Assembly (NCBI GenBank): GCA_965197905.1
Contig: CBDAOB010000004.1
Location: 1,760,001-1,824,000 of the forward strand
Reading direction: 5' to 3'
Source of the DNA: Candidatus Latescibacterota bacterium
GTDB taxonomy: Bacteria > Latescibacterota > UBA2968 > UBA8231
Length of the DNA stretch: 64,000 bases
Shown here piece after piece: positions 12,656-26,677 of this stretch. A model generated the notes under the pieces. The model was not told the origin of the DNA and searched no databases. It saw only the letters and a list, made by a program, of their open reading frames with translations. How positions within the stretch are numbered: the first letter of the stretch is position 1; each line of letters opens with the position of its first letter. Position numbers and translations under genes: made by a program.

Positions 12656-13012
12656 CGATTGCTCCAAATTGGAATTTGTGCGATTGGTCGTTTTGCGATC
12701 TGGCTACCGGTTGATGAAAGGAACCAGGGATGCCCCGCGGACAGGAACTAAACTGATTCTGACACGCACGTTATGCAAGACGAAAACATCCACCGGAGCC
12801 TTGAAGCAAGACGGTCGATTCCGGTCGTATGAAAATCAGCCGTGGACGGCGCGGGAGGTCCAGCTCTTCGGGACCGTTTGCGGCTGTCGAGATTCGTGCA
12901 CAATAAGCTTTGTTAGCCAGCCAATGGCACAAACGCGGCCTGATGCCGTGTCAGTGTTGTTTCTCTAGCGGGCAAAAAGATAGGGTTGTGGCGGCAACAA
13001 GATGGCCTCAAT

Positions 13013-13108
13013 CCATTGTCTTGCAACATTTTATGTCAGTGGCGGGAACATGTGGGAATCGAACCCACCCAGCGACGCTCTCGCGCCACCGCAACGGATT
13101 TGAAGTCC
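13013..13108 (-). repeat. att direct repeat: 3' part of tRNA-Sec from the anticodon loop, plus 27 bp downstream
   Basis: 96 bp matching 26552-26647 with one mismatch (A13050 vs G26589). Confidence 0.95.
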
Positions 13109-13212: not shown

Positions 13213-13672
13213 TGACCTGCCCCCACCTATGTATCCACATCCAGAGTTAGGATGTGGCTGCGATGAGCGGTCCTAGCGCCGCTTCCGGCGCCGGTGATTT
13301 ATAGCCGAGTGAACTGTGTGGGCGGATCTGATTATATTCCCGACGCCAGATCCGCTCCACTCGCTTGTGGTTCACTTGCCAGCCGTCAGCCTTCAGCAGG
13401 GCCGTGATCCTACGGTAGCCAGCCCATATTCTCTGGCCAGAGAGACGATGTTGGCGGTCAGAACCGCCTCATCGTCTGCCATCCTGGACGTGTATGGCTG
13501 GGAGCGTCTCACCTGTCCCAGCACACGGCACGCCCGACGCTCGGAAACACTCAGCACCTGGCAGACGAGCCCGACCGCCTGACGTCGACGCGTCGGGCTC
13601 AGAAGTTTTCCCGGGAGGTTTCCTTCAGGATCGAGATGTCCAGAGCCTGGTCGGCGACCAACCTCTTCAACC
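13213..13672 (-). mobile_element. IS3-family (IS407-group) remnant with right terminal IR and deleted DDE core
   Basis: OrfA end RLKRLVADQALDISILKE; OrfB SPTRRRQAV..SERRACRVLGQ..VNHKRVERIWRRE fused to YNQIRPHSSLGY..PAPE; terminal TGACCTGCCCCC at 13213. Confidence 0.88.
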
Positions 13673-13849
13673 TTCAGGGCAAAAAAGCAGTTCAACAACG
13701 GCATTGTCGAGGGGCTAAACCTGAAATGGAATCTTACGGTGAGAAAAGCATTCGGATTCCGCACCTTCAACGCACTCCAAATCGCTTCATTCCATCAGCT
13801 TGGCGATCTACCCGAGCCACAGTTCACCCACGAATTCTACTGACGAGCC
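13673..13849 (+). mobile_element. ISL3-family transposase C-terminal remnant with right end (not in ORF track)
   Basis: Hand translation FRAKKQFNNGIVEGLNLKWNLTVRKAFGFRTFNALQIASFHQLGDLPEPQFTHEFY*, ending ...GACGAGCC (ISL3 ends read GGCTC). Confidence 0.8.
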
Positions 13850-14496
13850 TATTTTTTTAACGGCCGCGCCGGCACGCCTACGACCGTTACATGCTCTGCT
13901 ACGTCTTCCACGACCGACGCCCCGGCGCCGACAATGGCGCCGGGGCCGACGGTCACCCCTTGTTTCAAAACGGCGCCAATGCCGATGTGCGCGCCCGTCC
14001 CCACCCGGACATTCCCCGCCAGGCGGGCGCCCGTTGCCACATGGGCGTGATCTGCGATAATGCAATCGTGTTCGATCACGGCACCGCTGTTGACAATGAC
14101 GTTTTTCCCCAAGTTGGCATCGGGGTTGACGATACTTCCGGCCAACAACTGGGCCCCGGCACCGATCGCGGCCCAACCCGATACTATCGCGCTCGGATGG
14201 ATCACCGACATAGGCTCCAACCCATTGGCAACTGCCAACTCGAAAAGGTTGCGCCGCGGTCCGTTGTTGCCCACCCCCCCGACCCCGACGGCAAAATAAG
14301 GAAATCCTTTGTCGGGCCAAGACGCCAGATCCGCGTCTCCGCCGGCGACGGGCGCATCGAGCACCTTGCCACCCCACAGCGCAGGGTCCTCGTCCACTAC
14401 CACGCACTCCAACCCGGGCAAGTGCAATTTCAGGGTTTCCAGCACCACTTTGGCATGCCCGCCCCCGCCGAGTACGACACATCCTCCACCCAACAC
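13849..14496 (-). CDS. neuD: NeuD/PglD family sugar acetyltransferase
   Basis: GGGGHAKVV, IHPSA, IEHDC, hexapeptide repeats, GVPARP. Confidence 0.9.
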   Translation of the reverse strand: MLGGGCVVLGGGGHAKVVLETLKLHLPGLECVVVDEDPALWGGKVLDAPVAGGDADLASWPDKGFPYFAVGVGGVGNNGPRRNLFELAVANGLEPMSVIHPSAIVSGWAAIGAGAQLLAGSIVNPDANLGKNVIVNSGAVIEHDCIIADHAHVATGARLAGNVRVGTGAHIGIGAVLKQGVTVGPGAIVGAGASVVEDVAEHVTVVGVPARPLKK

Positions 14497-14497
14497 G

Positions 14498-15688
14498 TCA
14501 CCGCTCCTCGCTGCGGGCCCACTCGGACGCCGCTCCTGTTAGGTCCTTGAACTCCTTGCGCAACAACTGGTCACCCAGCGCGACTTGCCGCAAACGATCG
14601 ACGATCTTTTCCGCCGCCAGCCCGTCGCCATAGGGGTTTGTCAACCGCGCCAGACCCGCGCGGAAATCGGAACTGAGGGCTCGGGTGATTCCGCGCGCTA
14701 TCTCGGCTTTGGTGCAGCCGACGTCGATCACATTTTCAGCGCGCGTCCTGCCGTCCTGGCGCGTGCCGATATTGACCACGGGCAATTTGAACGAGGGGCT
14801 CTCTATAATACCGCTCGAGGAGTTGCCCACCATCGCGGCGGCGACCGTCATCACGCTGAAATAACCCTGCATACCCAGGTTGTCGACGATTTGGACGTTG
14901 ACGCGGTTCGCGGCGAATTCCGCAACTCTTGCCGCGATTACCCGCCCCCCGGTGTCGGCGTTGGGCTGGGTAAAGACCATCGGCATGTCCCAATCCGCCA
15001 AGGCGTCGAGCAGTTCGCCTATATGGCGTCTTGTCTGCTCAAATTCCAACGTCACCGGATGGAAGGTCACCAACAGCGGCGGCGCGTCCAGGTGCAGTCC
15101 GTAGCGTTGTTCGACCTGGCTGCGATCCAACAACTCGACCGTTCGCAAGTTGTCCAGGGCGGGCGCGCCAGAGACCACGACCTGCGCCGGATCCTCGCCC
15201 AGTTGGACCACGCGACGCCCGTATTCGTCCGTGGCGACGAAATGCAAGTGGCTGAGCTTGGTCAGCGAATGCCGCAACGCGTCGTCGATGGCCCCTTGCG
15301 TCACTTCGCCGCCGTGGATATGGGCGACGGGGATCTTGAACGGCAGCGCCGCCAGCGCGGCGGCATGCATCTCGAAACGGTCGCCCAGCGTCAGGAGGAT
15401 ATCCGGTCGCGTGCGGGCGTAGGCCTGCGCATAACCGATCAACCCCAAACCCATGGACTTTACGATGCCCTCAGGCGAATCCGACGAGAGCAGCATCTCC
15501 ACCCGCTCCCCGACTGCGAAACCGTCCGCTTCGATCGCCTCTACCGTCATCCCGAACTCGGGCGACAGGTGCATCCCCCCGGCGAGGAGATGCAGATCCA
15601 ATTCGGGATCGGCCTGTATCCCTTTCAAGACGGGCAGGTAGATGCCGTAGTCCGAACGGGCCACCGAGACCACGCCGATCGTCCTCAA
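14498..15688 (-). CDS. neuC: UDP/GDP-N-acetylglucosamine 2-epimerase, hydrolysing (NeuC/LegG)
   Basis: RSDYG, GMHLSPEFG, GDRFE, HIHGGE, TFHPVT, GNSSSG, NPYGDG. Confidence 0.93.
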   Translation of the reverse strand: MRTIGVVSVARSDYGIYLPVLKGIQADPELDLHLLAGGMHLSPEFGMTVEAIEADGFAVGERVEMLLSSDSPEGIVKSMGLGLIGYAQAYARTRPDILLTLGDRFEMHAAALAALPFKIPVAHIHGGEVTQGAIDDALRHSLTKLSHLHFVATDEYGRRVVQLGEDPAQVVVSGAPALDNLRTVELLDRSQVEQRYGLHLDAPPLLVTFHPVTLEFEQTRRHIGELLDALADWDMPMVFTQPNADTGGRVIAARVAEFAANRVNVQIVDNLGMQGYFSVMTVAAAMVGNSSSGIIESPSFKLPVVNIGTRQDGRTRAENVIDVGCTKAEIARGITRALSSDFRAGLARLTNPYGDGLAAEKIVDRLRQVALGDQLLRKEFKDLTGAASEWARSEER

Positions 15689-16746
15689 ACGAGCGCCTCC
15701 AGCGACAGCAACTCACCCCCGACCAGCGCCCTAGCCGTCGTCCGCCGGACCACGTGGGACAAAAGGTCCGGCGGCAACCCCGTTCCGGGCCGCTTGATCT
15801 CAATCATATCCTTCCTGAGCACGGTCCCAGCTGGCAGATCCCGCGCGACGACCAGGCTCTTGCGGGCGACAGCCGCGGTCTCGAGCTCGGCTGTGGTTGG
15901 CTCTTTGCGGCCGTGGCCAAGCGCCGATTCCACATCGCGCACACCCCTTACCAGACTTTCCAGCTCGGCGGGTTCCAGCGAGGCGGCGTGATCGGGCCCG
16001 AGTAGCGAGCGGTCCAGGGTGAAGTGCTTCTCCAACACACAGGCTCCCAAAGCGACCGCCGCCAGCGCGACCTCGGTCCCCGTCGTGTGGTCTGAATACC
16101 CCACTGGCACGGAGAAGGCCCCCGCCAACGTCGCCATCGCCCGCAAGTTGGCGTCGCCGGGGCGGGTGGGATAACAACTCACGCAATGCATTAGCGCCAG
16201 CCGCTCGTTACCGGCCGCCGCAATCGCCCGCACGGCCTTTTCAACCTCGCCGATATACGACATCCCCGTGGAGACGAGGAGTGGCTTGCCTTTGGCGGCG
16301 ATATGACTGAGCAGGGGAAGATTGGTGATTTCGCCTGAAGGCACCTTAAAAACGGCAACCCCCAAAGCATCCAGAAAATCGACGCTATCCCCGTCAAAGG
16401 GGCTCGATATGAAAATCATGCCGTGGGACTCGCTCCGCGCTTTCAACTCCCGGTAGCCCTCCAACTCCAACTCCAGTCGCCGCAGCATCTCATAGGACGA
16501 TTCCCCCGCATCGGTATTGTCCTTCTGATAACCCGCCTTGGGCGCTGCGCCCGTGACGAGCTGATCGGCCTTGAAGGTCTGGAACTTGATGGCGTCGGCA
16601 CCGGTCTGTGCGGCAATATCGACCATCTGCCGGGCGCGCTCGAGGTCGCCGTTGTGATTGACCCCCGCCTCGGCGATGATCAGGCAGGGATGCCCCGGAC
16701 CCAGCTTGCGGCCGGCGACGGCGAATTCAGTTACCACGCCGTCCAT
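15685..16746 (-). CDS. neuB: Nonulosonic acid synthase (NeuB/LegI) with C-terminal SAF domain
   Basis: IAEAGVNHNG, IKFQTF, SGEITNLP, STGMS, GYSDHT, EKHFTLD, KRPGTG. Confidence 0.95.
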   Translation of the reverse strand: MDGVVTEFAVAGRKLGPGHPCLIIAEAGVNHNGDLERARQMVDIAAQTGADAIKFQTFKADQLVTGAAPKAGYQKDNTDAGESSYEMLRRLELELEGYRELKARSESHGMIFISSPFDGDSVDFLDALGVAVFKVPSGEITNLPLLSHIAAKGKPLLVSTGMSYIGEVEKAVRAIAAAGNERLALMHCVSCYPTRPGDANLRAMATLAGAFSVPVGYSDHTTGTEVALAAVALGACVLEKHFTLDRSLLGPDHAASLEPAELESLVRGVRDVESALGHGRKEPTTAELETAAVARKSLVVARDLPAGTVLRKDMIEIKRPGTGLPPDLLSHVVRRTTARALVGGELLSLEALV

Positions 16747-17537
16747 CCTCCGTCGACCACCACGTTCTGCCCCGTCACGTATTGGGAAAGGTCGCTGGCC
16801 AGATAGGCCACCGCTCCTTTGACATCTTCCTCGGTAGCCATCCGCTGCAGCGGAGTCCGCTCTTTATAACGCTGGTGGAACTCCTCGTGTTGGCCGCGCC
16901 ACACGCCCCCCATGCTGATGGCGTTGACCCTGACCTGCGGCGCCAGGGCGGTGGCCAGCCAGCGGGTCCATTGCACCAACCCGCCCTTGCTGGCCGCATA
17001 GGCCCCGGGCACCCCACCCATCGGCGTGCCTTCGTATAGGCCGGGGTCGGTGCCGACGATGCCGTAAATCGAGCTGATATTGATCACGCTGCCGTGTCCC
17101 GACTCGGCGAGCGCCTCGGCGCAGGCCTGGGTCAGGACGAAGGGCGCCGTCATATTGACCTCCAGAGCCTTGCGCCAGGTATCGGCGCTCTGCGCAGCGA
17201 AGGGCACGCCCCAACCGCGCAATTCCGAAGTCCCCACCAGCGCTGCACAATGGACGAGAATATCCAGACGACCGAAACGGTCGAGAACCTTGTCGGCGAC
17301 GGAGCGCAATTCCTCCTCGTCCTCCATATCCACCACTAGCGGCAACGTCTTCACCTGGCATTGCTCGGCGATGCAACCGGTGACCAGCAGACATTTTTCG
17401 CGTTGGATATCTAACAACGCGATATTCGCCCCCAATTCGGCGAGCGCCTCCCCTATCGCGGAACCGAGATATCCGGCTCCGCCCGTAATCAGCCCAACCC
17501 GGTCCCGCAAGTCGATTAGTTCGCCGACCGAACGCAT
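16731..17537 (-). CDS. SDR oxidoreductase, PtmA-like
   Basis: TGGAGYLG, NISSIYG, YAASKGG, GQNVVVDGGWTAW; located in NulO cluster. Confidence 0.85.
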   Translation of the reverse strand: MRSVGELIDLRDRVGLITGGAGYLGSAIGEALAELGANIALLDIQREKCLLVTGCIAEQCQVKTLPLVVDMEDEEELRSVADKVLDRFGRLDILVHCAALVGTSELRGWGVPFAAQSADTWRKALEVNMTAPFVLTQACAEALAESGHGSVINISSIYGIVGTDPGLYEGTPMGGVPGAYAASKGGLVQWTRWLATALAPQVRVNAISMGGVWRGQHEEFHQRYKERTPLQRMATEEDVKGAVAYLASDLSQYVTGQNVVVDGGWTAW

Positions 17538-17541
17538 CGCG

Positions 17542-18279
17542 TTATCCTCGGACGTTCCGAGCCAGGAGGAATTCGGCAAAATCCCAGTCGAGTGGAGTAT
17601 CGATATCGAGACTGCGCTGCCTGGGCACTTCCACCGCCTTGACCCTACTATTATAGATATAGTCCTCCTCCAACACGTGTTTGGGCCGCGCCGCATAGGC
17701 GACCGTGGAAATGCCGTAGACCCCGGGCGTATTCTGGCGGGAATGGGGCTCGTCCCCCGGCCCCGGCGGAATGACCATCCGCGCGAAGTTCCGTTCGTCC
17801 AACTCGACCATATTGTAATAGGGGCTTCTCTCTGCTGGGCTGACTGTGATGACGATGTCTATTTCACCTTGCTCGTCTTGCAATAAGGCGTCGATGCACT
17901 TGTCCAGATCCCCGACGGTGCGCAGCGGGGACGTCGTGGGCACGCTGACGAAGATATCAATCGGTCGGTCTGCTTCGAGGTCCTGTATCGTCCGGAGCGC
18001 GTGTTGCCAGGCGGCCCGCTCCGGCGCATCGTCACTGGCCAACTCCGCTGGTCGGACAAAAGGCACTTCGGCGCCGTATTCGCGGGCGACAGCGGCGATT
18101 TTATCATCGTCGGTCGAGACGATAACACGGTTGATAAATTCGCTTTGCTGGGCTATTTCTATGGAATAGGCGATCAGCGGCTTGCCGTGTAACGGCCGGA
18201 TATTCTTGCCCTGGATTCCCTTAGATCCGCCCCTAGCGAAAATAAACGCGGGTATATTCGGCTTGGCGTCATTTTTCAT
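17542..18279 (-). CDS. neuA: CMP-nonulosonic acid synthetase (NeuA/PtmB/LegF)
   Basis: ARGGSKGI..KNI, VSTDD, RPAELASD, PTTSPLR, DIDTPLD. Confidence 0.92.
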   Translation of the reverse strand: MKNDAKPNIPAFIFARGGSKGIQGKNIRPLHGKPLIAYSIEIAQQSEFINRVIVSTDDDKIAAVAREYGAEVPFVRPAELASDDAPERAAWQHALRTIQDLEADRPIDIFVSVPTTSPLRTVGDLDKCIDALLQDEQGEIDIVITVSPAERSPYYNMVELDERNFARMVIPPGPGDEPHSRQNTPGVYGISTVAYAARPKHVLEEDYIYNSRVKAVEVPRQRSLDIDTPLDWDFAEFLLARNVRG

Positions 18280-18316
18280 ATTGTTTCACTGCTTCTACAA
18301 TTGCAACAAACGCCCC

Positions 18317-19315
18317 TCATACCCGCTCTTCCCGGCCTTTAGCCGCGGATCGTTTGACAGCCAAGGCAATCTCCAGCGCGCGTTGACCGTCCTCACCTGT
18401 GACCGTGGGAATCGCCCTGTTTTTCACGCAATCAATGAAATGGCGTAATTCTTCGACATACATCCTGCGGCTGCAATCCCCACCCGCATCGTGGTACAGG
18501 CCGGACCAGTCGCCCGTTGCGGCGGAGTAATGGTCGACCTGGTGTTGGATACCATCCCACAACAGCGTCCCTTCCGAGCCGATAACCCGGCATAGACGTA
18601 CCGGCGAGCGTTGCACCATGTCCAGATGCGCGCTGCCAATTGCGCCGCAACGGAATTTAAGCGCGACTTCCGCTATGTCCTCGACATCAATCTCCAGATC
18701 ACTCACCTTGTCGGTGATTGCGCTGACCGTTTCAATCTCGCCGATCAGCCAGCGCAAATAATCCAACTCGTGGCTCAATTCCATCACAACCCCGCCCCCC
18801 AAGCCCTTCCGGGCGCTGACCGTGCCCCGGTAATCGACGCCGAGCCGCCAGTCGGGCAGGAACTGCCCGACCTCGGCTCGCACCCCCAGTACGCGACCGA
18901 TCTTCCCGTCGGCCAACGCCTCACGCAGGCTCAGCATCGACGGGCAGAAACGAAAATTATAACCGACCATCAGTACCAGGGAACGCCTGCGGCACTCGGC
19001 GAGCAGTTCATCCACCCCGTCCAGGGAATCGGCCAGTGGTTTCTCGATAAAAAGATCGATCCCCTGCCGGGAGAGGGCCAAAGCGGTCTCGACATGCCGA
19101 GTCGCGGGCCCGGTGAGCAAGGCCACCTCCGGCTCCTCTGCCAACGCGCCGGCCAGGTCATAGACGACCTCGTCGGCAGCGGGAATCGCGTCACCCTGCT
19201 CGCGGCGGCCGGGCGATTGACGCCAGACTGTGATATGGGCATCCTCGGCGATGCACCGCAAATTATCCAGGTGGCGACGGCCGATACTGCCCAGACCGAC
19301 GATAAGTGCCTTCAT
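18317..19315 (-). CDS. Gfo/Idh/MocA oxidoreductase, PtmF-like
   Basis: GLGSIGRRH, FIEKPL, VGYNFRF, LPDWR, GGGVVMELSHELDY. Confidence 0.88.
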   Translation of the reverse strand: MKALIVGLGSIGRRHLDNLRCIAEDAHITVWRQSPGRREQGDAIPAADEVVYDLAGALAEEPEVALLTGPATRHVETALALSRQGIDLFIEKPLADSLDGVDELLAECRRRSLVLMVGYNFRFCPSMLSLREALADGKIGRVLGVRAEVGQFLPDWRLGVDYRGTVSARKGLGGGVVMELSHELDYLRWLIGEIETVSAITDKVSDLEIDVEDIAEVALKFRCGAIGSAHLDMVQRSPVRLCRVIGSEGTLLWDGIQHQVDHYSAATGDWSGLYHDAGGDCSRRMYVEELRHFIDCVKNRAIPTVTGEDGQRALEIALAVKRSAAKGREERV

Positions 19316-19360
19316 GGCGCTATGATCGGCCTTATAAAGATGACTTTTGCGAAGGGCAGC

Positions 19361-19427
19361 CTAACAAATCTCATGGAGTCCACCTTAACCCCGCTGCCCG
19401 ACTGTCCAAAGGATGGGGTCCACTTCT
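19361..19427 (+). mobile_element. Right end of an IS3-family element (short remnant)
   Basis: ...VHLNPAARLSKGWGPL-type transposase tail overlapping CTGTCCAAAGGATGGGGTCCACTTC, an IS3-type IR recognised from memory. Confidence 0.55.
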
Positions 19428-19547
19428 GAGTAAAACGGGAAATTTCTTAAATAGTTCATAAATAAACGAACGTATATTCATCGTTGGTCACATCTCAATC
19501 GATACTGTTCGGGACAAGTAAGGGTGGGCTGCGCCTTGAAGTTCCGC

Positions 19548-19983
19548 TTAGACGGCCCTTGACTCACTACTGTGTTGGAAAGTGTGGAGGGGAGAAATAC
19601 GTTCAAGACGATATACGGGACCCAGTATATAGTGCCATTGGAATGAATGCTCGGGATCGAGGACGGATGGCCCTTGGTCGCGGGTTCGCAAGCGAATAAT
19701 GGTCGCCTCCTGGGTGTAGTTCGGAAATATAGGCGTGACGGTCGCCGGGTCTATTGATTCCAACCGTTATTTCCGTCGACTCGTATCTGCATCGACTGAA
19801 GTAGTCACTGTATTCGCGATTGCCGGCCCCGGCATCGAGCACGCGATCAGACGGCTTGACGCCAACGGCCGACTCTTGCACGAATATTTCCACTCTCCAC
19901 CGCTCGGCGTTGAGCCGCTTGATGGTCTCCCGCCGCATGCTCTTCAGGAATTCCGGTACTAGCTTACTAATTATCCTCCTCAT
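19548..19983 (-). pseudogene. Class I SAM methyltransferase fragment
   Basis: VLDAGAG motif I and YES; later motifs are missing and the frame is lost. Confidence 0.6.
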
Positions 19984-21347
19984 CCCCAATCTCCGTGCGA
20001 AGCCCCACCCTCGTTGCAGTGCCGACGGTGCCGCAGCAAAATCGAGTCTCTTTCGGGCTATATCTGACAGCTCCGGCGCCCCAAGCTTCAGCGAAATTCT
20101 CGTTGGCGCTCTCAATAGCCTGCCTCCGCCCCGCGCCATCGCGTAGACTGCGTAGCAATGAGGTCATATACTCCCCCATCCTGACGCGGGCCTGGCCGTC
20201 CCGAAAGGGGTCCAGGTCGTCGGCGATAGGCCCCCAATCCCCGAAGCCGGGCACCGCATTGGGGTCTGCGCGATATTGTGCCACTGCTGCAAAGATCTCT
20301 GTCCAGTTTGCAAACACTACCGTATCCTTGCCCCAGGCGTAATAAGGGTGCGCGTCCATGTCCATAGCGTCGATGAGTAACGACGGCACCCCGGCCAGAT
20401 AGGCCTCTAGCCCCGCAGTAGTACCCACCAATTCGCCAATCGCGACATCCGCCATCAAACCGGCCACAGCGGGATAGGTCCCCAAATCGTCGCATATGAG
20501 CAAACGGCCCGTCGCCATAGCTTCTTCCAATAGGTCCTCGATATCGGCGAGCCGCTTGAAAAGGTCTCTCGCTTTGGGCTTGCACACCACACCGACCGTA
20601 TCATCGACAAGCAGCAGCTCTATAAGACCGACATACACGGCAGTGGTATCCGCGTTGGAGATAATGGCATCCCTGCCAGGCGTAGAATTTTCGTCGAAAT
20701 AGGCGATGATAAAACCGCGCCCCTTTCGCCCGCAGCCGTTCCCGCTCCGCTCTCGACTCGGCCTCGACCTCGACCTCGCGAAATATACCGTCGAAAATGT
20801 ACCCGGTGTATATCAGGGATTCCGTTGGCAACCTGTGTGGGGCCCACAAATCGGTGAAGAGGGGGGAGTAGGAAAACAGCACGTCCGACGTCGGCGTCAT
20901 ATCCAGCGAGGCGTCGTATAGATTCGAGCCCTGGTAGGAGACGCTGACCCCGCCCGAGCGGCGTAGCGCCATAGCGCCGCCAATGCCCTTGTAGCTGACG
21001 AAACCGCTGTAATCCACATTCGCCTTGATACCCTGGGTCTTGAAGAAATCATGCCAAAAGGCGATATCGAAAACCAGGGCGTTGACATATTGCGTATAAG
21101 CTGCCACCCGTCCCCCCTCTCGCGACAGGCTGCCCATAAAGGCCCAATAATCGACCTGTACGACCTGAATCTTACCATAGCCCAATACAGCGAGGACCTT
21201 TAAAGCCCATCGAGCCGACGACGATACCTCGTCAAAATACCAGATCTCCTGGGGGGCGTCGGCTTTAGGCCGCAACCGCAACAACCAGTATACGAGGGCT
21301 GCCAGGGTGATATTATCCATATACGTCCTGGCGTTATCCGCTTTCAT
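19967..21347 (-). CDS. Polysaccharide-biosynthesis-associated hypothetical protein, possibly GT-B fold; +1 frameshift in A4 run at 20711-20714
   Basis: ORFs 20601-21425 and 19967-20638 join as ...AKGARF|IIAYFDENS...; C-terminal KPK, TTAGLEA and DPFRDGQA resemble GT-B nucleotide-binding halves. Confidence 0.5.
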
Positions 21348-21366
21348 ATCCGGCACCGCCTCACCG

Positions 21367-22029
21367 CTACCCCGCGACAAAATACGTATCGCGCACTTTC
21401 CTGCGCGCCGGCTTGCAGCGCACATCGGGATATTGGCCGAAAATGACTTGGCCCTCGGGAAGTTCCGAATCTATGACGACCGCCCCCACCGCCAGCCAGC
21501 TATTGGCGCCGATATGGCACCGGCCCGCGATCACGCTGCCCGCGTGCATGGCGACTCCCTCGCCCAAAACGGGATATTCCCCGTCGTAGTTGGCCCCGAC
21601 GGTACAGTTGTGGTGGACCATGAGATAATTGGCATATTGAGCCCGCCCCAGCACTGTGCCCATACAGTGGTTGAAGAGAAATACGTCGGGCAACTCGACT
21701 TGATAAAAGACATCGATGGCGTGCAGGTGCTTGTTGAGGCCATATATTCGGGCTGCCAGTTCCTCGTTTTCTTCCACGCTCCATGCCGTATTCGACAATA
21801 AATACAAAAACATGGCGTACTGATCGGAGTGGAGGTGGTCGAATACTACATCTTCGCCGTCGGCAAAGTATTTATCGCGGATCCTGGAAAAGCAGTATTC
21901 GACGCGCTCCATGGTTTGGTTGAGCGCAGGCGCAACCCCCGCAGCACCCAGGGTATAATCAGGAAAAGACGCCGCCAACTGGTCCGCCACGTACGCCGAG
22001 AGCCGGCCTTGGGGCAGTGATAGCCTCAT
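21367..22029 (-). CDS. Serine O-acetyltransferase-like left-handed beta-helix acyltransferase
   Basis: FDHLHSDQYAMFLY, LNKHLHAID, HCMGTVLGRA, hexapeptide repeats. Confidence 0.8.
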   Translation of the reverse strand: MRLSLPQGRLSAYVADQLAASFPDYTLGAAGVAPALNQTMERVEYCFSRIRDKYFADGEDVVFDHLHSDQYAMFLYLLSNTAWSVEENEELAARIYGLNKHLHAIDVFYQVELPDVFLFNHCMGTVLGRAQYANYLMVHHNCTVGANYDGEYPVLGEGVAMHAGSVIAGRCHIGANSWLAVGAVVIDSELPEGQVIFGQYPDVRCKPARRKVRDTYFVAG

Positions 22030-22036
22030 GGCTGCC

Positions 22037-23377
22037 CTAATACAAACTTCGCGCCGTCTGCGTTCCCGCGTCGATATCATCGACGATGACGTAGACATTT
22101 CCGGCGCGGTCGCAGCTGGCTACTCCGACCGCTGCGAGCTCTTCGCGCGGCACGGTGTGTTGGTCAAAGGCGTAGGTCCACTCGTGGAACGGGACCTGGA
22201 AGTCGAAATTGTCGTGGAAGTAATGTCCGCTTTTGGTTTTCAGAGCCAGAAAGGGTTGCGGCCCGAAGGTCGGTGTCGCGGTCCGCACCCGCAATCCGCC
22301 GCCCTCGATCTGGACCTCCAACTCTAGCGCGGGTTCGGGGTCTATAGCCAATGCGTCGCGCACGGCGCTTCTCGCCTCAGAATATTTGACCTCGACCTCG
22401 GGAAACCTCGCCCTGGCTGAGGAAAGCATACCGCGGACGGTGTCGATATCCGGACGCATATCCCTGAAATCGTGGTGCGTAAAGCCCAACACCACGGGTT
22501 TTTCGGCCATCGCCTCGGCGAACGCCTGATCGACATCCGCCTGCTGCAGTAAGCGCAACCGCGTGCCGAAGTTGAGGCAGCGCATGGTCCACCGCCGGCA
22601 ATCGCCGGGCACCTGGTAGTCCTCGTGCGCCGGATGGTAGGGCTGCCAGTTGTGCGGCGCTCGGCGCCAATCGCCGAAGCGGCCGGCGTCGAGGTCCGGA
22701 TGCGGCTCCGCCACGGGCGCGCACGCCTGGTTGGAGAAGTCGAACGGGATATACTGCTCCAAAAACCAATGGCTGTCCGGCCGGATCACATTAAACCCCG
22801 GACGAAAAGTGCATGGGAACCAGGCTCGATCAATAATTCTCCGCGCCAGCGACTGATACAGGGTATCCGCGTAGCCGAAATAGCTAGTCGCGCAGTGATG
22901 GGCGCTGCGGCTGATTGGCATGGGATGGTAGTGGAAGTGTATCCCGTCGGGCTTGGTGCCGGTGGATTCGGCCAATGCGACATAGCGGTCGAAAATCTTG
23001 TGATAGCCTATATCGCGGCGACGCGGATTGGCGGCGTAACCGACGTGGTCGACGCAAAACCAGGAATAGATCCAGCCGTTGCCGAACGAATCCGGGACCT
23101 GGTTCCGGTACTCGGCGCTGGCGATCTCTGCCAGCATGCCGTTGAGTTTGTCCCAATCGTCATTGTAGTCCAGCAGGTTGGACGCCACCAACTCGGCGAC
23201 CGCGTTTTCGTGGCCGCCGAGATCGATCTCCTTATCGCGCAGCCGCTGCAGGTTTTCGCTACTCGGTTCGATGCTGATGCCCCAGATCGCCTCAATCCTC
23301 CCAAACGTGGCCTCGAGAGATTCGTAGAGCGGCCCTTCGGTATCAATGCAGTGGACGACGTGGACGACGGATGCCAT
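22037..23377 (-). CDS. Conserved hypothetical protein, polysaccharide deacetylase-like metal-binding motifs
   Basis: HCIDTEGP, HFHYH, FRPG, DWR and HHDFRD resemble WalW/CE4-like TIM barrels (inference). Confidence 0.55.
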   Translation of the reverse strand: MASVVHVVHCIDTEGPLYESLEATFGRIEAIWGISIEPSSENLQRLRDKEIDLGGHENAVAELVASNLLDYNDDWDKLNGMLAEIASAEYRNQVPDSFGNGWIYSWFCVDHVGYAANPRRRDIGYHKIFDRYVALAESTGTKPDGIHFHYHPMPISRSAHHCATSYFGYADTLYQSLARRIIDRAWFPCTFRPGFNVIRPDSHWFLEQYIPFDFSNQACAPVAEPHPDLDAGRFGDWRRAPHNWQPYHPAHEDYQVPGDCRRWTMRCLNFGTRLRLLQQADVDQAFAEAMAEKPVVLGFTHHDFRDMRPDIDTVRGMLSSARARFPEVEVKYSEARSAVRDALAIDPEPALELEVQIEGGGLRVRTATPTFGPQPFLALKTKSGHYFHDNFDFQVPFHEWTYAFDQHTVPREELAAVGVASCDRAGNVYVIVDDIDAGTQTARSLY

Positions 23378-24492
23378 CTAAAAATAGCTCTCGAGCGTAC
23401 CTTCCCGGACCGTATCGAGCGTGCAGCAGTGAAATGCACCCTTCATCAGGAACTGGTTGGGGTTTTTCAGCGGGATGACTGTGAACCCGTGCTGCTCAAG
23501 CTTCTTGATCAGCGGCGTCTGCCGCTCGTCGACGATAACCGTCTCCGCATCCAGCGACAAGCGGTTCATGCCGGTCCAGACGGTGGTCATATAGGTCAGG
23601 TCGCTTTCGACGCCGAGTTCTTCAAATTGCTTGTTGATCGGCGTCCACACTTTCTCGAAGAAGTCTTCGACCTCCTCGGGATAGGGCTGGATATCGTGGA
23701 AGTAGATCTTGTCCCAGCTGTCGAAGAGCGACGGGCAGTTGTCCTCGCTGACGCGTTCGCCATTGACCAATACTAAACCGGGTCGCAGCACGATCAGCGT
23801 CGAATCGATATGGGCCGAGCGGTAGATCCCCTCCGTGGTGTGGACCTTGTATTCGTCGCCGAGGATCGACTGCAGCCACTTGGCGCCGAGGTAGTTGCCC
23901 GAACCGGACACCAAGTAAATCAGATCGCGCCCCATGCGCAGCGTATTGGCAGCCTCGAACAGAATCTCGTCCTCGCTCAGTTTGTGGTATTTCTTACCGT
24001 CTTCGAAGAACGGAATCCGATAATTTCCCTTCAGCCTCGGTTTCGGCGCGGCGATCCAGCGAAAGCCCTCGTCCATATACTCTTCGAGAAAAACGTTGTG
24101 CATGCACTGGGCCTCGAAGTAGCGGTGCTTCATATGCGACGGCGATTCGATCACCGTGTTGCCGGCGATCAAGTGCAGGTCGCGGGCGTTATAGGCGTTG
24201 ATGCCGGTCGAACACCAGTACCCCGTAGAATGGAAATTGTTGATCCCGGTGCTGTCCGGTCGAAACACCTTGGCACCGTATTCCCTGCTGACGTCGCACA
24301 GTGCTTCGAGGTCGGCGTTGACATCGTCGATAAGCGATTGCGGGAACGCCTGGGCGGCGAGTTTCTCGATCTTTTCGCGCTTGTCGGCGGGGACCCACTC
24401 CTCGTCGGGAAATGTCAAGAACGCCTTGGTATCGGCAACCCCTACGATAACTTCCTTAAGGGGTCCCATTCGTTGTGACTACAGATCTTCAT
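23378..24492 (-). CDS. Amidinotransferase (glycine/inosamine-phosphate amidinotransferase family); -1 frameshift in G4 run at 24460-24463
   Basis: Repaired N-terminus MKICSHNEWDP|LKEVIVG after AAAGGAG RBS; ARD, AAPKPRL, FEAAN, SGSGN..G..WL, HIDST, FHCCTLD. Confidence 0.9.
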
Positions 24493-24555
24493 AGAGTGTT
24501 GCTCCTTTGTCGCTTTGCTATAGGTTGGTCCGGTGTCGTCGGTGTGCGCCCGACG

Positions 24556-25473
24556 TTATTTTTTGACGGCCAGGTACTGCACCATGCCCTGGCCATAGAG
24601 CGCCTTCGAGACCGGATGGTCTGAGTGGTAATGCAGCGGCGCGCTGAATTTACGCACATCCGTCCGCTTGACGTAAAAATGAAGGCGAGTTACGTCGGTG
24701 AAGCCGTTCTCCTCGTACAGCGACTCGACGAATTCCGGCGTGCACTGCGAAGACAGCTCGTTCGGGCGCTGGATATAGTTCTGCAGGAAGATACAGAATT
24801 CGATGCCGAACAGCGGCTTGACCGCCTCTGGGTCGACCGCCTCGCCCGTGCGCTCGTGGTGCTCGCCGAGGGCGAAGTCGATCGTGTCGTGGATCACCTC
24901 CGGCGTGATCGTGTCGATAAACTCCTTGAAATACGCGTTCTCTTGATAGTATTTCTGCAACGCCGGAAAGATGGCCGCCATAAAGGCGCCGCCGGCGATG
25001 CCGTAGGCCGTGTAGTAATACCCACCCGGCTTCAGCACCCGCACCCCTTCGCGAAAGGCTGCGCTGACTTCGTCGAGATTGTTCATCAGGGTCAGCACGC
25101 CATTGATCGTCACGAAGTCGAAGGTTGCGTCCAGGTGCGGGATCTCCAGGACATTGCCCGGCTTCAAGTGCAGCCGCGACCGATCCACGCCGCGGCGCTC
25201 GAGGTTAGCGTGCAGCTTGTCCATCCACGCATCGCCCAGATCAACCCCGTGCACCGTCTCGATGCCTTGGTGGAACAGCCATAAAATAAAAGGACCGGCG
25301 TTGCCGCAGCCGGCGTCGAGCGCGACCTTGCCCTTGAACCACTCCGGCGGAATCGGAATCGAAGCATTATCGTACATGTCGTAGAGTCGGCGGAAGGCGA
25401 CCTCGTCGGCGGCGACCATCTCGTGCTGGGCGTCGTAGACGGCTCGCGTCAGTTCCGAAATATCTTCTGCCAT
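24556..25473 (-). CDS. Class I SAM-dependent methyltransferase (copy A, 305 aa)
   Basis: ALDAGCGNAG, TFDFV, RVLKPGG. Confidence 0.9.
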   Translation of the reverse strand: MAEDISELTRAVYDAQHEMVAADEVAFRRLYDMYDNASIPIPPEWFKGKVALDAGCGNAGPFILWLFHQGIETVHGVDLGDAWMDKLHANLERRGVDRSRLHLKPGNVLEIPHLDATFDFVTINGVLTLMNNLDEVSAAFREGVRVLKPGGYYYTAYGIAGGAFMAAIFPALQKYYQENAYFKEFIDTITPEVIHDTIDFALGEHHERTGEAVDPEAVKPLFGIEFCIFLQNYIQRPNELSSQCTPEFVESLYEENGFTDVTRLHFYVKRTDVRKFSAPLHYHSDHPVSKALYGQGMVQYLAVKK

Positions 25474-25530
25474 GACTGGCGTACTCCTTTGCCACAGATA
25501 GATGTTGTGATTGAATTTTCGCGTTTGGGG

Positions 25531-26448
25531 CTACTTCTTCACGGCGAGGTATTGCACACCGCCCTGGCCGTAAAGCGCCTTAGCCACCGGGTGGTCCGAG
25601 TGATAATGCAGCGGCGCGCTAAACTTGCGCACATCCGTCCGCTTAACGAAATAATGCAGCCGGGTGATGTCGGTAAAGCCGTTCTCCTCGTACATCGATT
25701 CGACAAACTCCGGCGTGCACTGCGAGGAGAAGTCGGTCGGGCGCTGGATATAATTCTGCAGGAAGATACAGAACTCGACGCCGAACAGCGGCTTGATCGC
25801 CTCCGGGTCGACCGCCTCGCCCGTGCGCTCGCGGTGCTCGCCGAGGGCGAAGTCGATCGTGTCGTGAATCACCTCCGGCGTGATCGTGTCGATGAATTCC
25901 TTGAAATAGTCGTTCTCATTGTAGTATTGCCGCAACGCCGGAAAGATCGCGTCCATAAAGGCGCCGCCGGCGATGCCGTAGACCGTGTAGTAATAACCGC
26001 CCGGCTTCAACACCCGCGCCCCCTCGCGGAAGGCCTCACGGATCTCGTTCATATTGTTCAAATGAATCAACACGCCGTTGATCGTCACGAAGTCGAAGGT
26101 TTCGTCCGGGTGCGGAATATCTCGAACATTGCCCGGTTTCAGCAACAACTGCGAACGGTCGATGCCGCGGTGCTCGAGGTTGGCATGCAGCTTGTCCATC
26201 CACGCGTCACCCAAATCGACCCCGTGCACCGTCTCGACCCCCTGGTGGAACAGCCATAAAATAAAAGGGCCGGCGTTGCCGCAGCCGGCATCAAGCGCGA
26301 CTTTGCCCTTGAACCACTCCGGCGCGATCGGGATCGAGGCGTTGTCGTACATATCATAGAGTCGGCGGAAGGCGACCTCGTCGGCGGCGACCATCTCGTG
26401 CTGGGCGTCGTAGACGGATCGCGTCAGTTCCGATATATCTTCGGCCAT
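25531..26448 (-). CDS. Class I SAM-dependent methyltransferase (copy B, 305 aa)
   Basis: Same motifs; 38 substitutions versus copy A by manual count; shared RBS CAAAGGAGTACGCCAG. Confidence 0.9.
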   Translation of the reverse strand: MAEDISELTRSVYDAQHEMVAADEVAFRRLYDMYDNASIPIAPEWFKGKVALDAGCGNAGPFILWLFHQGVETVHGVDLGDAWMDKLHANLEHRGIDRSQLLLKPGNVRDIPHPDETFDFVTINGVLIHLNNMNEIREAFREGARVLKPGGYYYTVYGIAGGAFMDAIFPALRQYYNENDYFKEFIDTITPEVIHDTIDFALGEHRERTGEAVDPEAIKPLFGVEFCIFLQNYIQRPTDFSSQCTPEFVESMYEENGFTDITRLHYFVKRTDVRKFSAPLHYHSDHPVAKALYGQGGVQYLAVKK

Positions 26449-26548: not shown

Positions 26549-26578
26549 AACCCATTGTCTTGCAACATTTTATGTCAG

Positions 26579-26677
26579 TGGCGGGAACGTGTGGGAATCG
26601 AACCCACCCAGCGACGCTCTCGCGCCACCGCAACGGATTTGAAGTCCGCGGAGGCCACCAGGCACCCTTCCGCTCCC
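26579..26677 (-). tRNA. selC: tRNA-Sec (UCA)
   Basis: 99 nt; GCGGA-CTTCAAA-TCCGT anticodon arm; long D-stem with TGGT loop; long variable arm; GTGGG-TTCGATT-CCCAC T arm; GCCA end. Confidence 0.95.

Follow-up and report, generated by a model that had tools for sequence, protein, structure and literature searches.

A decaying island in a Latescibacterota genome and its relatives point to a predicted guanidino tailoring of nonulosonic acids, with an unnamed protein family in the deacetylase slot

The closest described systems to the locus analyzed here tailor nonulosonic acids (NulOs) from within leg and pse clusters. Amidotransferases of the PseA/PtmG/WbuX type, together with PtmH-type methyltransferases, turn an N-acetyl into a basic, optionally methylated group, the acetamido being converted to an acetimidoyl in place; PtmG/PtmH tailoring of NulOs is described in 10.64898/2026.04.20.719630. 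The same work reports a deacetylase and a formyltransferase in the leg cluster of Ca. Kuenenia and a CMP-NulO that bears one free and one formylated amine. A third relative, StrB1, is the streptomycin L-arginine:inosamine-phosphate amidinotransferase, a pentein enzyme acting on an aminocyclitol phosphate. The stretch studied here (the window) comprises 64,000 nucleotides of Candidatus Latescibacterota bacterium (assembly GCA_965197905.1, contig CBDAOB010000004.1, positions 1,760,001 to 1,824,000). It carries an island in which the gene for a StrB1-like L-arginine amidinotransferase (AT) adjoins that of a protein we call DTEGP, in the company of two methyltransferase genes and a legionaminic-type (Leg-type) module. 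Like the PseA/PtmG/WbuX systems, the locus would replace an N-acetyl by a basic group; unlike them, it would remove the acetyl and add an amidino group, giving a guanidine, with an enzyme of unrelated fold. The remove-then-replace logic on a Leg-type CMP-sugar matches that of Ca. Kuenenia stuttgartiensis, where the outcome is a formyl or free amine and not a guanidine.

Judging from gene families, catalytic residues, a predicted fold and gene linkage, we lean toward the reading that relatives with intact genes make a guanidino or methylguanidino NulO by de-N-acetylation, arginine-dependent amidino transfer and methylation, presumably in that order. The neu/leg genes, assigned by family, would make a di-N-acetylated sugar or its CMP form. 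The predicted deacylase DTEGP would remove one N-acetyl, a job that would fall to a CE4 deacetylase in most other genomes, and the AT would move the amidino group of L-arginine, via its catalytic Cys, to the freed sugar amine at C5 or C7. The methyltransferases would then add one or two methyls to the guanidine or to a hydroxyl, which is the least certain step, and transfer of the sugar to a surface glycan would be the task of a GT-B-like transferase. If Leg-based, the products would have masses of 334.149 (guanidino/acetyl; Leg5,7Ac2 is 334.138), 348.165 and 362.180. Since guanidino and acetyl forms lie only 0.011 Da apart, low-resolution surveys would read ordinary Leg5,7Ac2.

The AT is homologous over its full length to the solved L-arginine amidinotransferases AGAT and StrB1. 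StrB1 (PDB 1bwd) is its closest solved structure (E 1e-66 versus 1e-41 for AGAT), and profile comparison agrees (1e-96 versus 1e-65). All 48 clade sequences keep Cys348, His220 and Asp97. The triad acid at position 172 is acidic throughout (Glu in 47, Asp in one), and Asp222 is found in 47 sequences, the last having an X; we take Asp97 and Asp222 to be the guanidinium-binding Asp pair of amidinotransferases. The AT shares with StrB1 the motif LLYLVS..SGN and a short loop before the catalytic His220, and its likely acceptor would be an amine on a six-membered ring. It departs from StrB1 in forming a separate clade on a long branch, in the triad Glu for Asp, in an insert of about 20 residues, and in lying in surface-glycan loci beside a deacetylase instead of in aminoglycoside clusters. 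A quick IQ-TREE run on 68 rows, with the fragment L046 left out, recovered the clade as monophyletic relative to five outgroups (SH-aLRT 99).

A genome scan yielded 46 AT loci from CPR bacteria, SAR11, Prochlorococcus, Acidobacteriota, Planctomycetota, Chloroflexota, an archaeon and others; their open reading frames (ORFs) were called and clustered, and 53 cluster representatives were annotated. A NodB/CE4 (PF01522) deacetylase gene was found within 2.5 kb of AT in 43 loci and within 200 bp in 37, its TFDD and HxxxH motifs being kept, and a methyltransferase of one of two families stood nearby in 31. Linkage to neu/leg genes, the lack of which the original prediction had named as refuting it, holds for both proteins: neuA/B/C genes lie within 10 kb of AT in 35 of the 46 genome loci (26 of the 33 with full 10-kb flanks), and neu genes accompany DTEGP in 54 of the best 80 of 472 metagenome loci (46 of the 52 that span at least 8 kb). 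AT is often found among the core leg genes, as in L016, L034 and L045, where NeuC lies on one side of it and PtmE or PtmF on the other. Neither neu nor CE4 nor DTEGP genes were seen in the controls, that is, the best 80 of 263 viral AT loci (29-42% identity) and five annotated plasmid/phage outgroup loci. These are not cellular glycan loci, and the controls therefore test the specificity of the clade, not enrichment among glycan genes.

The same deacetylation, amidination and methylation might instead act on another amino sugar of the glycan (HexNAc, QuiNAc or FucNAc type) or on an NDP-hexose precursor that is not on the way to a NulO. CE4 enzymes classically act on GlcNAc; 11 of the 46 AT loci have no neu gene on the available DNA; and PseB-like dehydratases, extra DegT enzymes and UDP-glucose dehydrogenases occur at many. 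Yet the frequent position of AT between core leg genes and the high count among full-flank loci speak for a NulO. Where genomes of the 11 loci were tested, four of five had a strong NeuB elsewhere, compared with 14 of 60 genomes related to the source genome. We regard this account as unlikely, though it survives best among the alternatives.

Some occurrences of amidinotransferases lie outside this pattern. At two Acidobacteriota loci (L021, L028) the clade AT stands alone, its surroundings devoid of deacetylase, methyltransferase and neu genes. Phage contigs frequently encode distant amidinotransferases (L136-L215, L133); that of Synechococcus phage S-SCSM2R (L133) lies among glycosyltransferase, aminotransferase and radical SAM genes. 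An NDP-sugar dehydratase gene is found near the distant viral AT in 24 of 80 loci.

The ATs of the window and of loci L047, L048 and L086 group in a single subclade (support 99) in which DTEGP is encoded within one gene of AT, while no CE4 gene is seen on the available sequence. Three gene orders occur, namely MT-MT-AT-DTEGP (MT, methyltransferase), AT-MT-DTEGP and DTEGP-AT, and LegB-like and PtmE-like fragments border L048. Here DTEGP looks like a replacement for the CE4 deacetylase, an unrelated protein with the same predicted chemistry. This subclade, with a DTEGP protein in the deacetylase slot, is what is new here; that an unrelated protein of predicted deacylase fold occupies the same slot is further comparative evidence that a free amine is needed.

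Alternatively, the subclade AT may need no deacetylase, either amidinating the 4-amino sugar of LegC or relying on another enzyme, and DTEGP would tailor NulOs independently of AT, in concert with a left-handed beta-helix (LbH) acyltransferase, brought next to AT by one rearrangement. In line with this, 77 of the 80 DTEGP loci have no AT, and L020 has an AT with its own CE4 gene and, separately, DTEGP beside the LbH family of the window. The two genes nevertheless stay within one gene of each other in three different orders, and a deacetylase is kept in every other major AT branch, so that we find this account improbable.

Behind it comes an alternative named in the original prediction: AT and a methyltransferase would make a guanidinoacetate- or creatine-like acid, which an acyltransferase would attach to the freed amine. 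AGAT plus a methyltransferase is the established route to creatine, and the window has an LbH acyltransferase gene. The AT loop before His220 is without AGAT's Asn300 and Met302, which matter for substrate binding according to PMC4887976. CyrA uses glycine though it has neither residue (PMC3684758, PMC4887976), and their absence in AT therefore does not exclude glycine. The AT is closer to StrB1 than to AGAT, however, its neighborhood has no conserved acyl-activating enzyme or carrier family, and the window's LbH family was found in 3 of 49 AT loci. We consider this explanation improbable as well, and deacetylation followed by direct amidination of the sugar remains our preferred reading.

Sequence searches with DTEGP against PDB, Pfam (including PF01522), NCBIfam and plasmids gave no match, and the ESM Atlas returned unnamed clusters and one low-score DUF3863 lead. 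The first model (30 sequences, pLDDT 72) had no useful Foldseek match; a VIA alignment of that weaker model supports the barrel assignment (Z 6.9, rmsd 4.6, 196 aligned). The model of residues 1-347 built from 130 sequences (pLDDT 96.5) is a distorted (beta/alpha) barrel of the glycoside hydrolase/deacetylase superfamily. Foldseek ranked HP0310 first (3qbu; E 3e-5, probability 1.00, TM 0.44), followed by two polysaccharide deacetylases and then PuuE and ArnD. D12/E14, H149/H151, R192, D213, W237 and H302/D303 are kept in 120-129 of the 130 rows and run in the expected active-site order of the fold (acid pair, His pair, Arg, Asp/Trp, His-Asp), by a five-motif scheme that we assume to apply. We predict from the model that DTEGP is a metal-dependent deacylase with the HP0310/PuuE/ArnD fold; fold and motifs lend support to the earlier guess of a deacetylase-like protein. 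DTEGP resembles this branch of the NodB (CE4) fold in its predicted barrel and in the order of acid, His, Arg and His-Asp motifs. It differs in its 10-13% identity, the absence of a Pfam match, large inserts, an Ig-like C-terminal domain, and DxE and HxH spacings in place of DD and HxxxH.

Of 7,995 scored candidates, 2,317 are homologues of DTEGP; none carries a function, and they reduce to 1,044 representatives at 50% identity. One homologue, AAR35345.1 (P0083 / P0391; 56% identity), belongs to the cultured and tractable Geobacter sulfurreducens. The family is large and unnamed, and it is linked to NulO loci, most of which have no AT. DTEGP was found in 1 of 251 genomes sampled in the phylum of G061, in none of 301 in the class of G062, and in 3 of 167 other genomes of the source phylum, none of the three with AT. 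In 60 genomes related to the source genome no AT was found; 14 had a strong NeuB. Among six long DTEGP homologues tested, four were fused to a methyltransferase (one weakly) and one to a formyltransferase, the last a parallel to the Ca. Kuenenia formyltransferase.

The surroundings of DTEGP vary. In L069 and L081 a single leg cluster brings together two or three tandem DTEGP paralogues, methyltransferases, an AMP-binding enzyme and a CE4 gene. In L051, L052, L108 and L112, DTEGP lies beside AMP-binding, LuxE-like (labeled so by inspection of the sequence, no scan being involved) and LuxC-like genes, which suggests activation of an acyl group that would re-acylate the sugar amine. An IMG/VR contig (L216) has a DTEGP gene with methyltransferase, WbuX-like and PseB-like genes. 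NeuC is scarce: among long loci, it lies close to NeuB in 3 of 21 with DTEGP as opposed to 22 of 25 with AT. Fifty-one DTEGP loci have NeuB; 36 of them carry a GT2-like family, 7 carry NeuC, none carries both and 8 carry neither, counts that are not independent since 17 loci fall into one cluster at 75% identity. This family of about 310 aa (L054, L056, L070-L073, L113-L121 and others; e.g., L070:1325-2332) was never seen alongside NeuC and is a candidate for a new NDP-sugar hydrolase replacing NeuC/PseG. The least probable of the alternatives, that DTEGP itself is such a glycosidase-like hydrolase or another amidohydrolase (ureido/guanidino) and not a deacetylase, draws on the scarcity of NeuC and on a fold shared with GH57/GH38 and PuuE allantoinase, but the GT2-like family, never co-occurring with NeuC, is therefore the better substitute, and in the window NeuC and DTEGP belong to one cluster, their genes being immediate neighbors in L220.

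The window block is about 13.5 kb long, has its genes on the minus strand and is bounded by two 99-bp direct repeats, one of which overlaps tRNA-Sec; it is therefore an island. No integrase gene was seen within it, and a search for RNA data sets that contain it listed none. Its features are as follows.

13010..13108, no strand: 99-bp direct repeat of the 3' part of tRNA-Sec at the far island end (98% identity to 26549-26647)
13393..13770, minus: weak remnant of an IS3-family transposase (NF033516, E 0.065)
13849..14496, minus: sugar acetyltransferase of the NeuD/PglB/VioB family (TIGR03570, 201.5 bits versus cut-off 160.8)
14498..15688, minus: hydrolysing NDP-sugar 2-epimerase, NeuC/LegG (TIGR03568, 443.6 bits versus cut-off 235.9)
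15685..16746, minus: nonulosonate synthase, NeuB/LegI (TIGR03569, 441.3 bits versus cut-off 399.65)
16731..17534, minus: short-chain dehydrogenase (SDR), presumably PtmA-like (adh_short_C2, E 7e-50; best NCBIfam NF006619, below cut-off)
17542..18279, minus: CMP-nonulosonate synthetase of NeuA/LegF type (CTP_transf_3, E 5e-21; TIGR03584, 146 bits, below cut-off)
18317..19315, minus: Gfo/Idh/MocA oxidoreductase, presumably PtmF-like (Pfam E 3e-21)
19603..19983, minus: truncated methyltransferase-like remnant (S-adenosylmethionine (SAM) motif I seen in the translation; Pfam and NCBIfam scans without a match)
19967..21347, minus: pseudogene of a putative GT-B transferase of about 680 aa, PFTS/LIC12162-like (internal deletion and frameshift)
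21367..22029, minus: LbH acyltransferase, CysE/EpsC-like (NF041874, E 1e-13, below cut-off)
22037..23377, minus: DTEGP protein, intact gene (predicted HP0310/PuuE/ArnD-type deacylase barrel in residues 1-347, Ig-like C-terminal domain)
23378..24492, minus: StrB1-like L-arginine amidinotransferase (AT), frameshifted near the 5' end
24556..25473, minus: class I SAM methyltransferase, copy 2 (Methyltransf_11, E 1.5e-15)
25531..26448, minus: class I SAM methyltransferase, copy 1 (tandem duplicate, 87.5% identity to copy 2)
26579..26677, minus: tRNA-Sec, the integration site (repeat copy at 26549-26647)

The genes of the GDP-linked legionaminic acid pathway present in the island are those of LegG/NeuC, LegI/NeuB, LegF/NeuA, the acetyltransferase and the PtmA/PtmF-like proteins. 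NeuB/LegI is a single copy, no second one having been found in the genome (completeness 91%). The PtmA-like gene likely starts at 17534, although the ORF finder runs on to 17696. AT and DTEGP had no significant Pfam or NCBIfam match except weak pentein matches for AT, and the GT-B assignment comes from full-length relatives with weak TIGR04417/NF046086 matches and from Atlas neighbors. The gene order first proposed was recovered in full, every named gene being present on the minus strand, and the AT stop codon does abut the DTEGP start codon. The reported lack of a PseA/PtmG-like gene agrees with a tblastn search of the genome, island included, in which one WbuX representative had no match at 1e-8. 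The "IS scar" (insertion sequence) proposed at 19361-19427 is single-copy in the genome, and a repeated element end is suggested there only by the depth and loose ends of metagenome contigs. High depth and loose ends also mark the transposase remnant at 13393..13770.

The gene families of the original prediction are present, but it had missed their decay, namely the AT frameshift, the GT-B-like pseudogene and the absence of legB, legC and ptmE from the island. AT homologues are about 371 aa long with a conserved motif at their start. In the window, the true AT start is 24492, which has a Shine-Dalgarno site and this N-terminal motif; a C-run near 24460 is short by one base, and the frame from 24492 ends after 16 codons. 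The 363-aa ORF from 24469 has neither the Shine-Dalgarno site nor the motif. Contigs of runs X1 (19371-24887) and X3 (24221-24664) cross the frameshift site without gaps. They come from two samples and two studies (X1 may be the source data, X3 a second study); an assembly error is therefore not supported, and the frameshift is probably real. At 23562, by contrast, the C of the window is probably an assembly error: all four runs have A, giving Leu, as in the homologues, and not Arg303 of AT. The GT-B-like gene has lost about 250 of 681 residues (about 72-321 of a 681-aa relative) and has a frameshift at about 20712-20725; a contig of X6 has one base fewer at 20711. In a further decay variant, one X3 contig fuses 16303 to 25899, with a loss of 9.6 kb from mid-neuB to the first methyltransferase gene. 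AT is intact in the relatives L047 and P0121, the former a metagenome contig (81% DNA identity) with the same MT-MT-AT-DTEGP-LbH order as the window. The island is a decaying copy of a tailoring cassette, and its biology must therefore be read from relatives. The source strain probably no longer makes the predicted sugar, because the AT and GT-B-like transferase genes are broken in its genome.

Several observations weigh against a guanidino NulO made by way of DTEGP. The genes legB, legC and ptmE, which are present at many related loci (LegB dehydratase, LegC aminotransferase, PtmE), are absent from the island, and their best matches elsewhere in the genome have about 35% identity or less; the backbone could for this reason be Neu-type instead of Leg-type. 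The L047, L048 and L086 contigs are only 4.8-11.7 kb long, neuA/B/C are not seen on them, and since the AT-partnered cases of DTEGP all fall in one subclade, the swap of CE4 for DTEGP may have been one event. Three AT loci have no deacetylase, the 11 without a nearby neu gene have been mentioned, and 7 of the 46 also contain a WbuX-type amidotransferase. The AGAT triad is Cys407/His303/Asp254 (PMC3684758); the Glu of the AT clade, in place of the Asp of characterized amidinotransferases, would be compatible with a hydrolase (deiminase-like) activity. DTEGP has no profile similarity to the CE4 partner (hhalign probability 0.8%), its fold scores are modest (TM 0.39-0.44), and GH57/GH38 glycosidases follow closely in the ranking. 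Finally, AT was present in 3 of the 80 DTEGP loci and its usual CE4 partner in none. Each of the two proteins is linked to neu genes, but they are not a general pair, the AT clade being mostly found with CE4.

We found no natural guanidino NulO and no amidinotransferase in leg clusters in the open-access literature searched; in the main text and two supplements of PMC8157484, "guanid" and "amidin" do not occur. We put forward, tentatively, that many uncultured bacteria and some archaea (CPR bacteria, SAR11, Prochlorococcus, Planctomycetota, Acidobacteriota and others) may wear guanidino or methylguanidino NulOs, with the deacetylase slot filled by unrelated proteins, and that DTEGP may be a general NulO N-deacylase family with interchangeable partners for amidino, formyl, methyl and acyl groups. 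A guanidino group remains protonated and would offset the sugar's acid charge; surface charge would change, as probably would recognition by phages and grazers. Such a pathway would add cell-surface glycans to the range of arginine amidinotransferases, otherwise small-molecule natural products and creatine, and it offers a testable function for the DTEGP family of more than 2,300 unnamed proteins.

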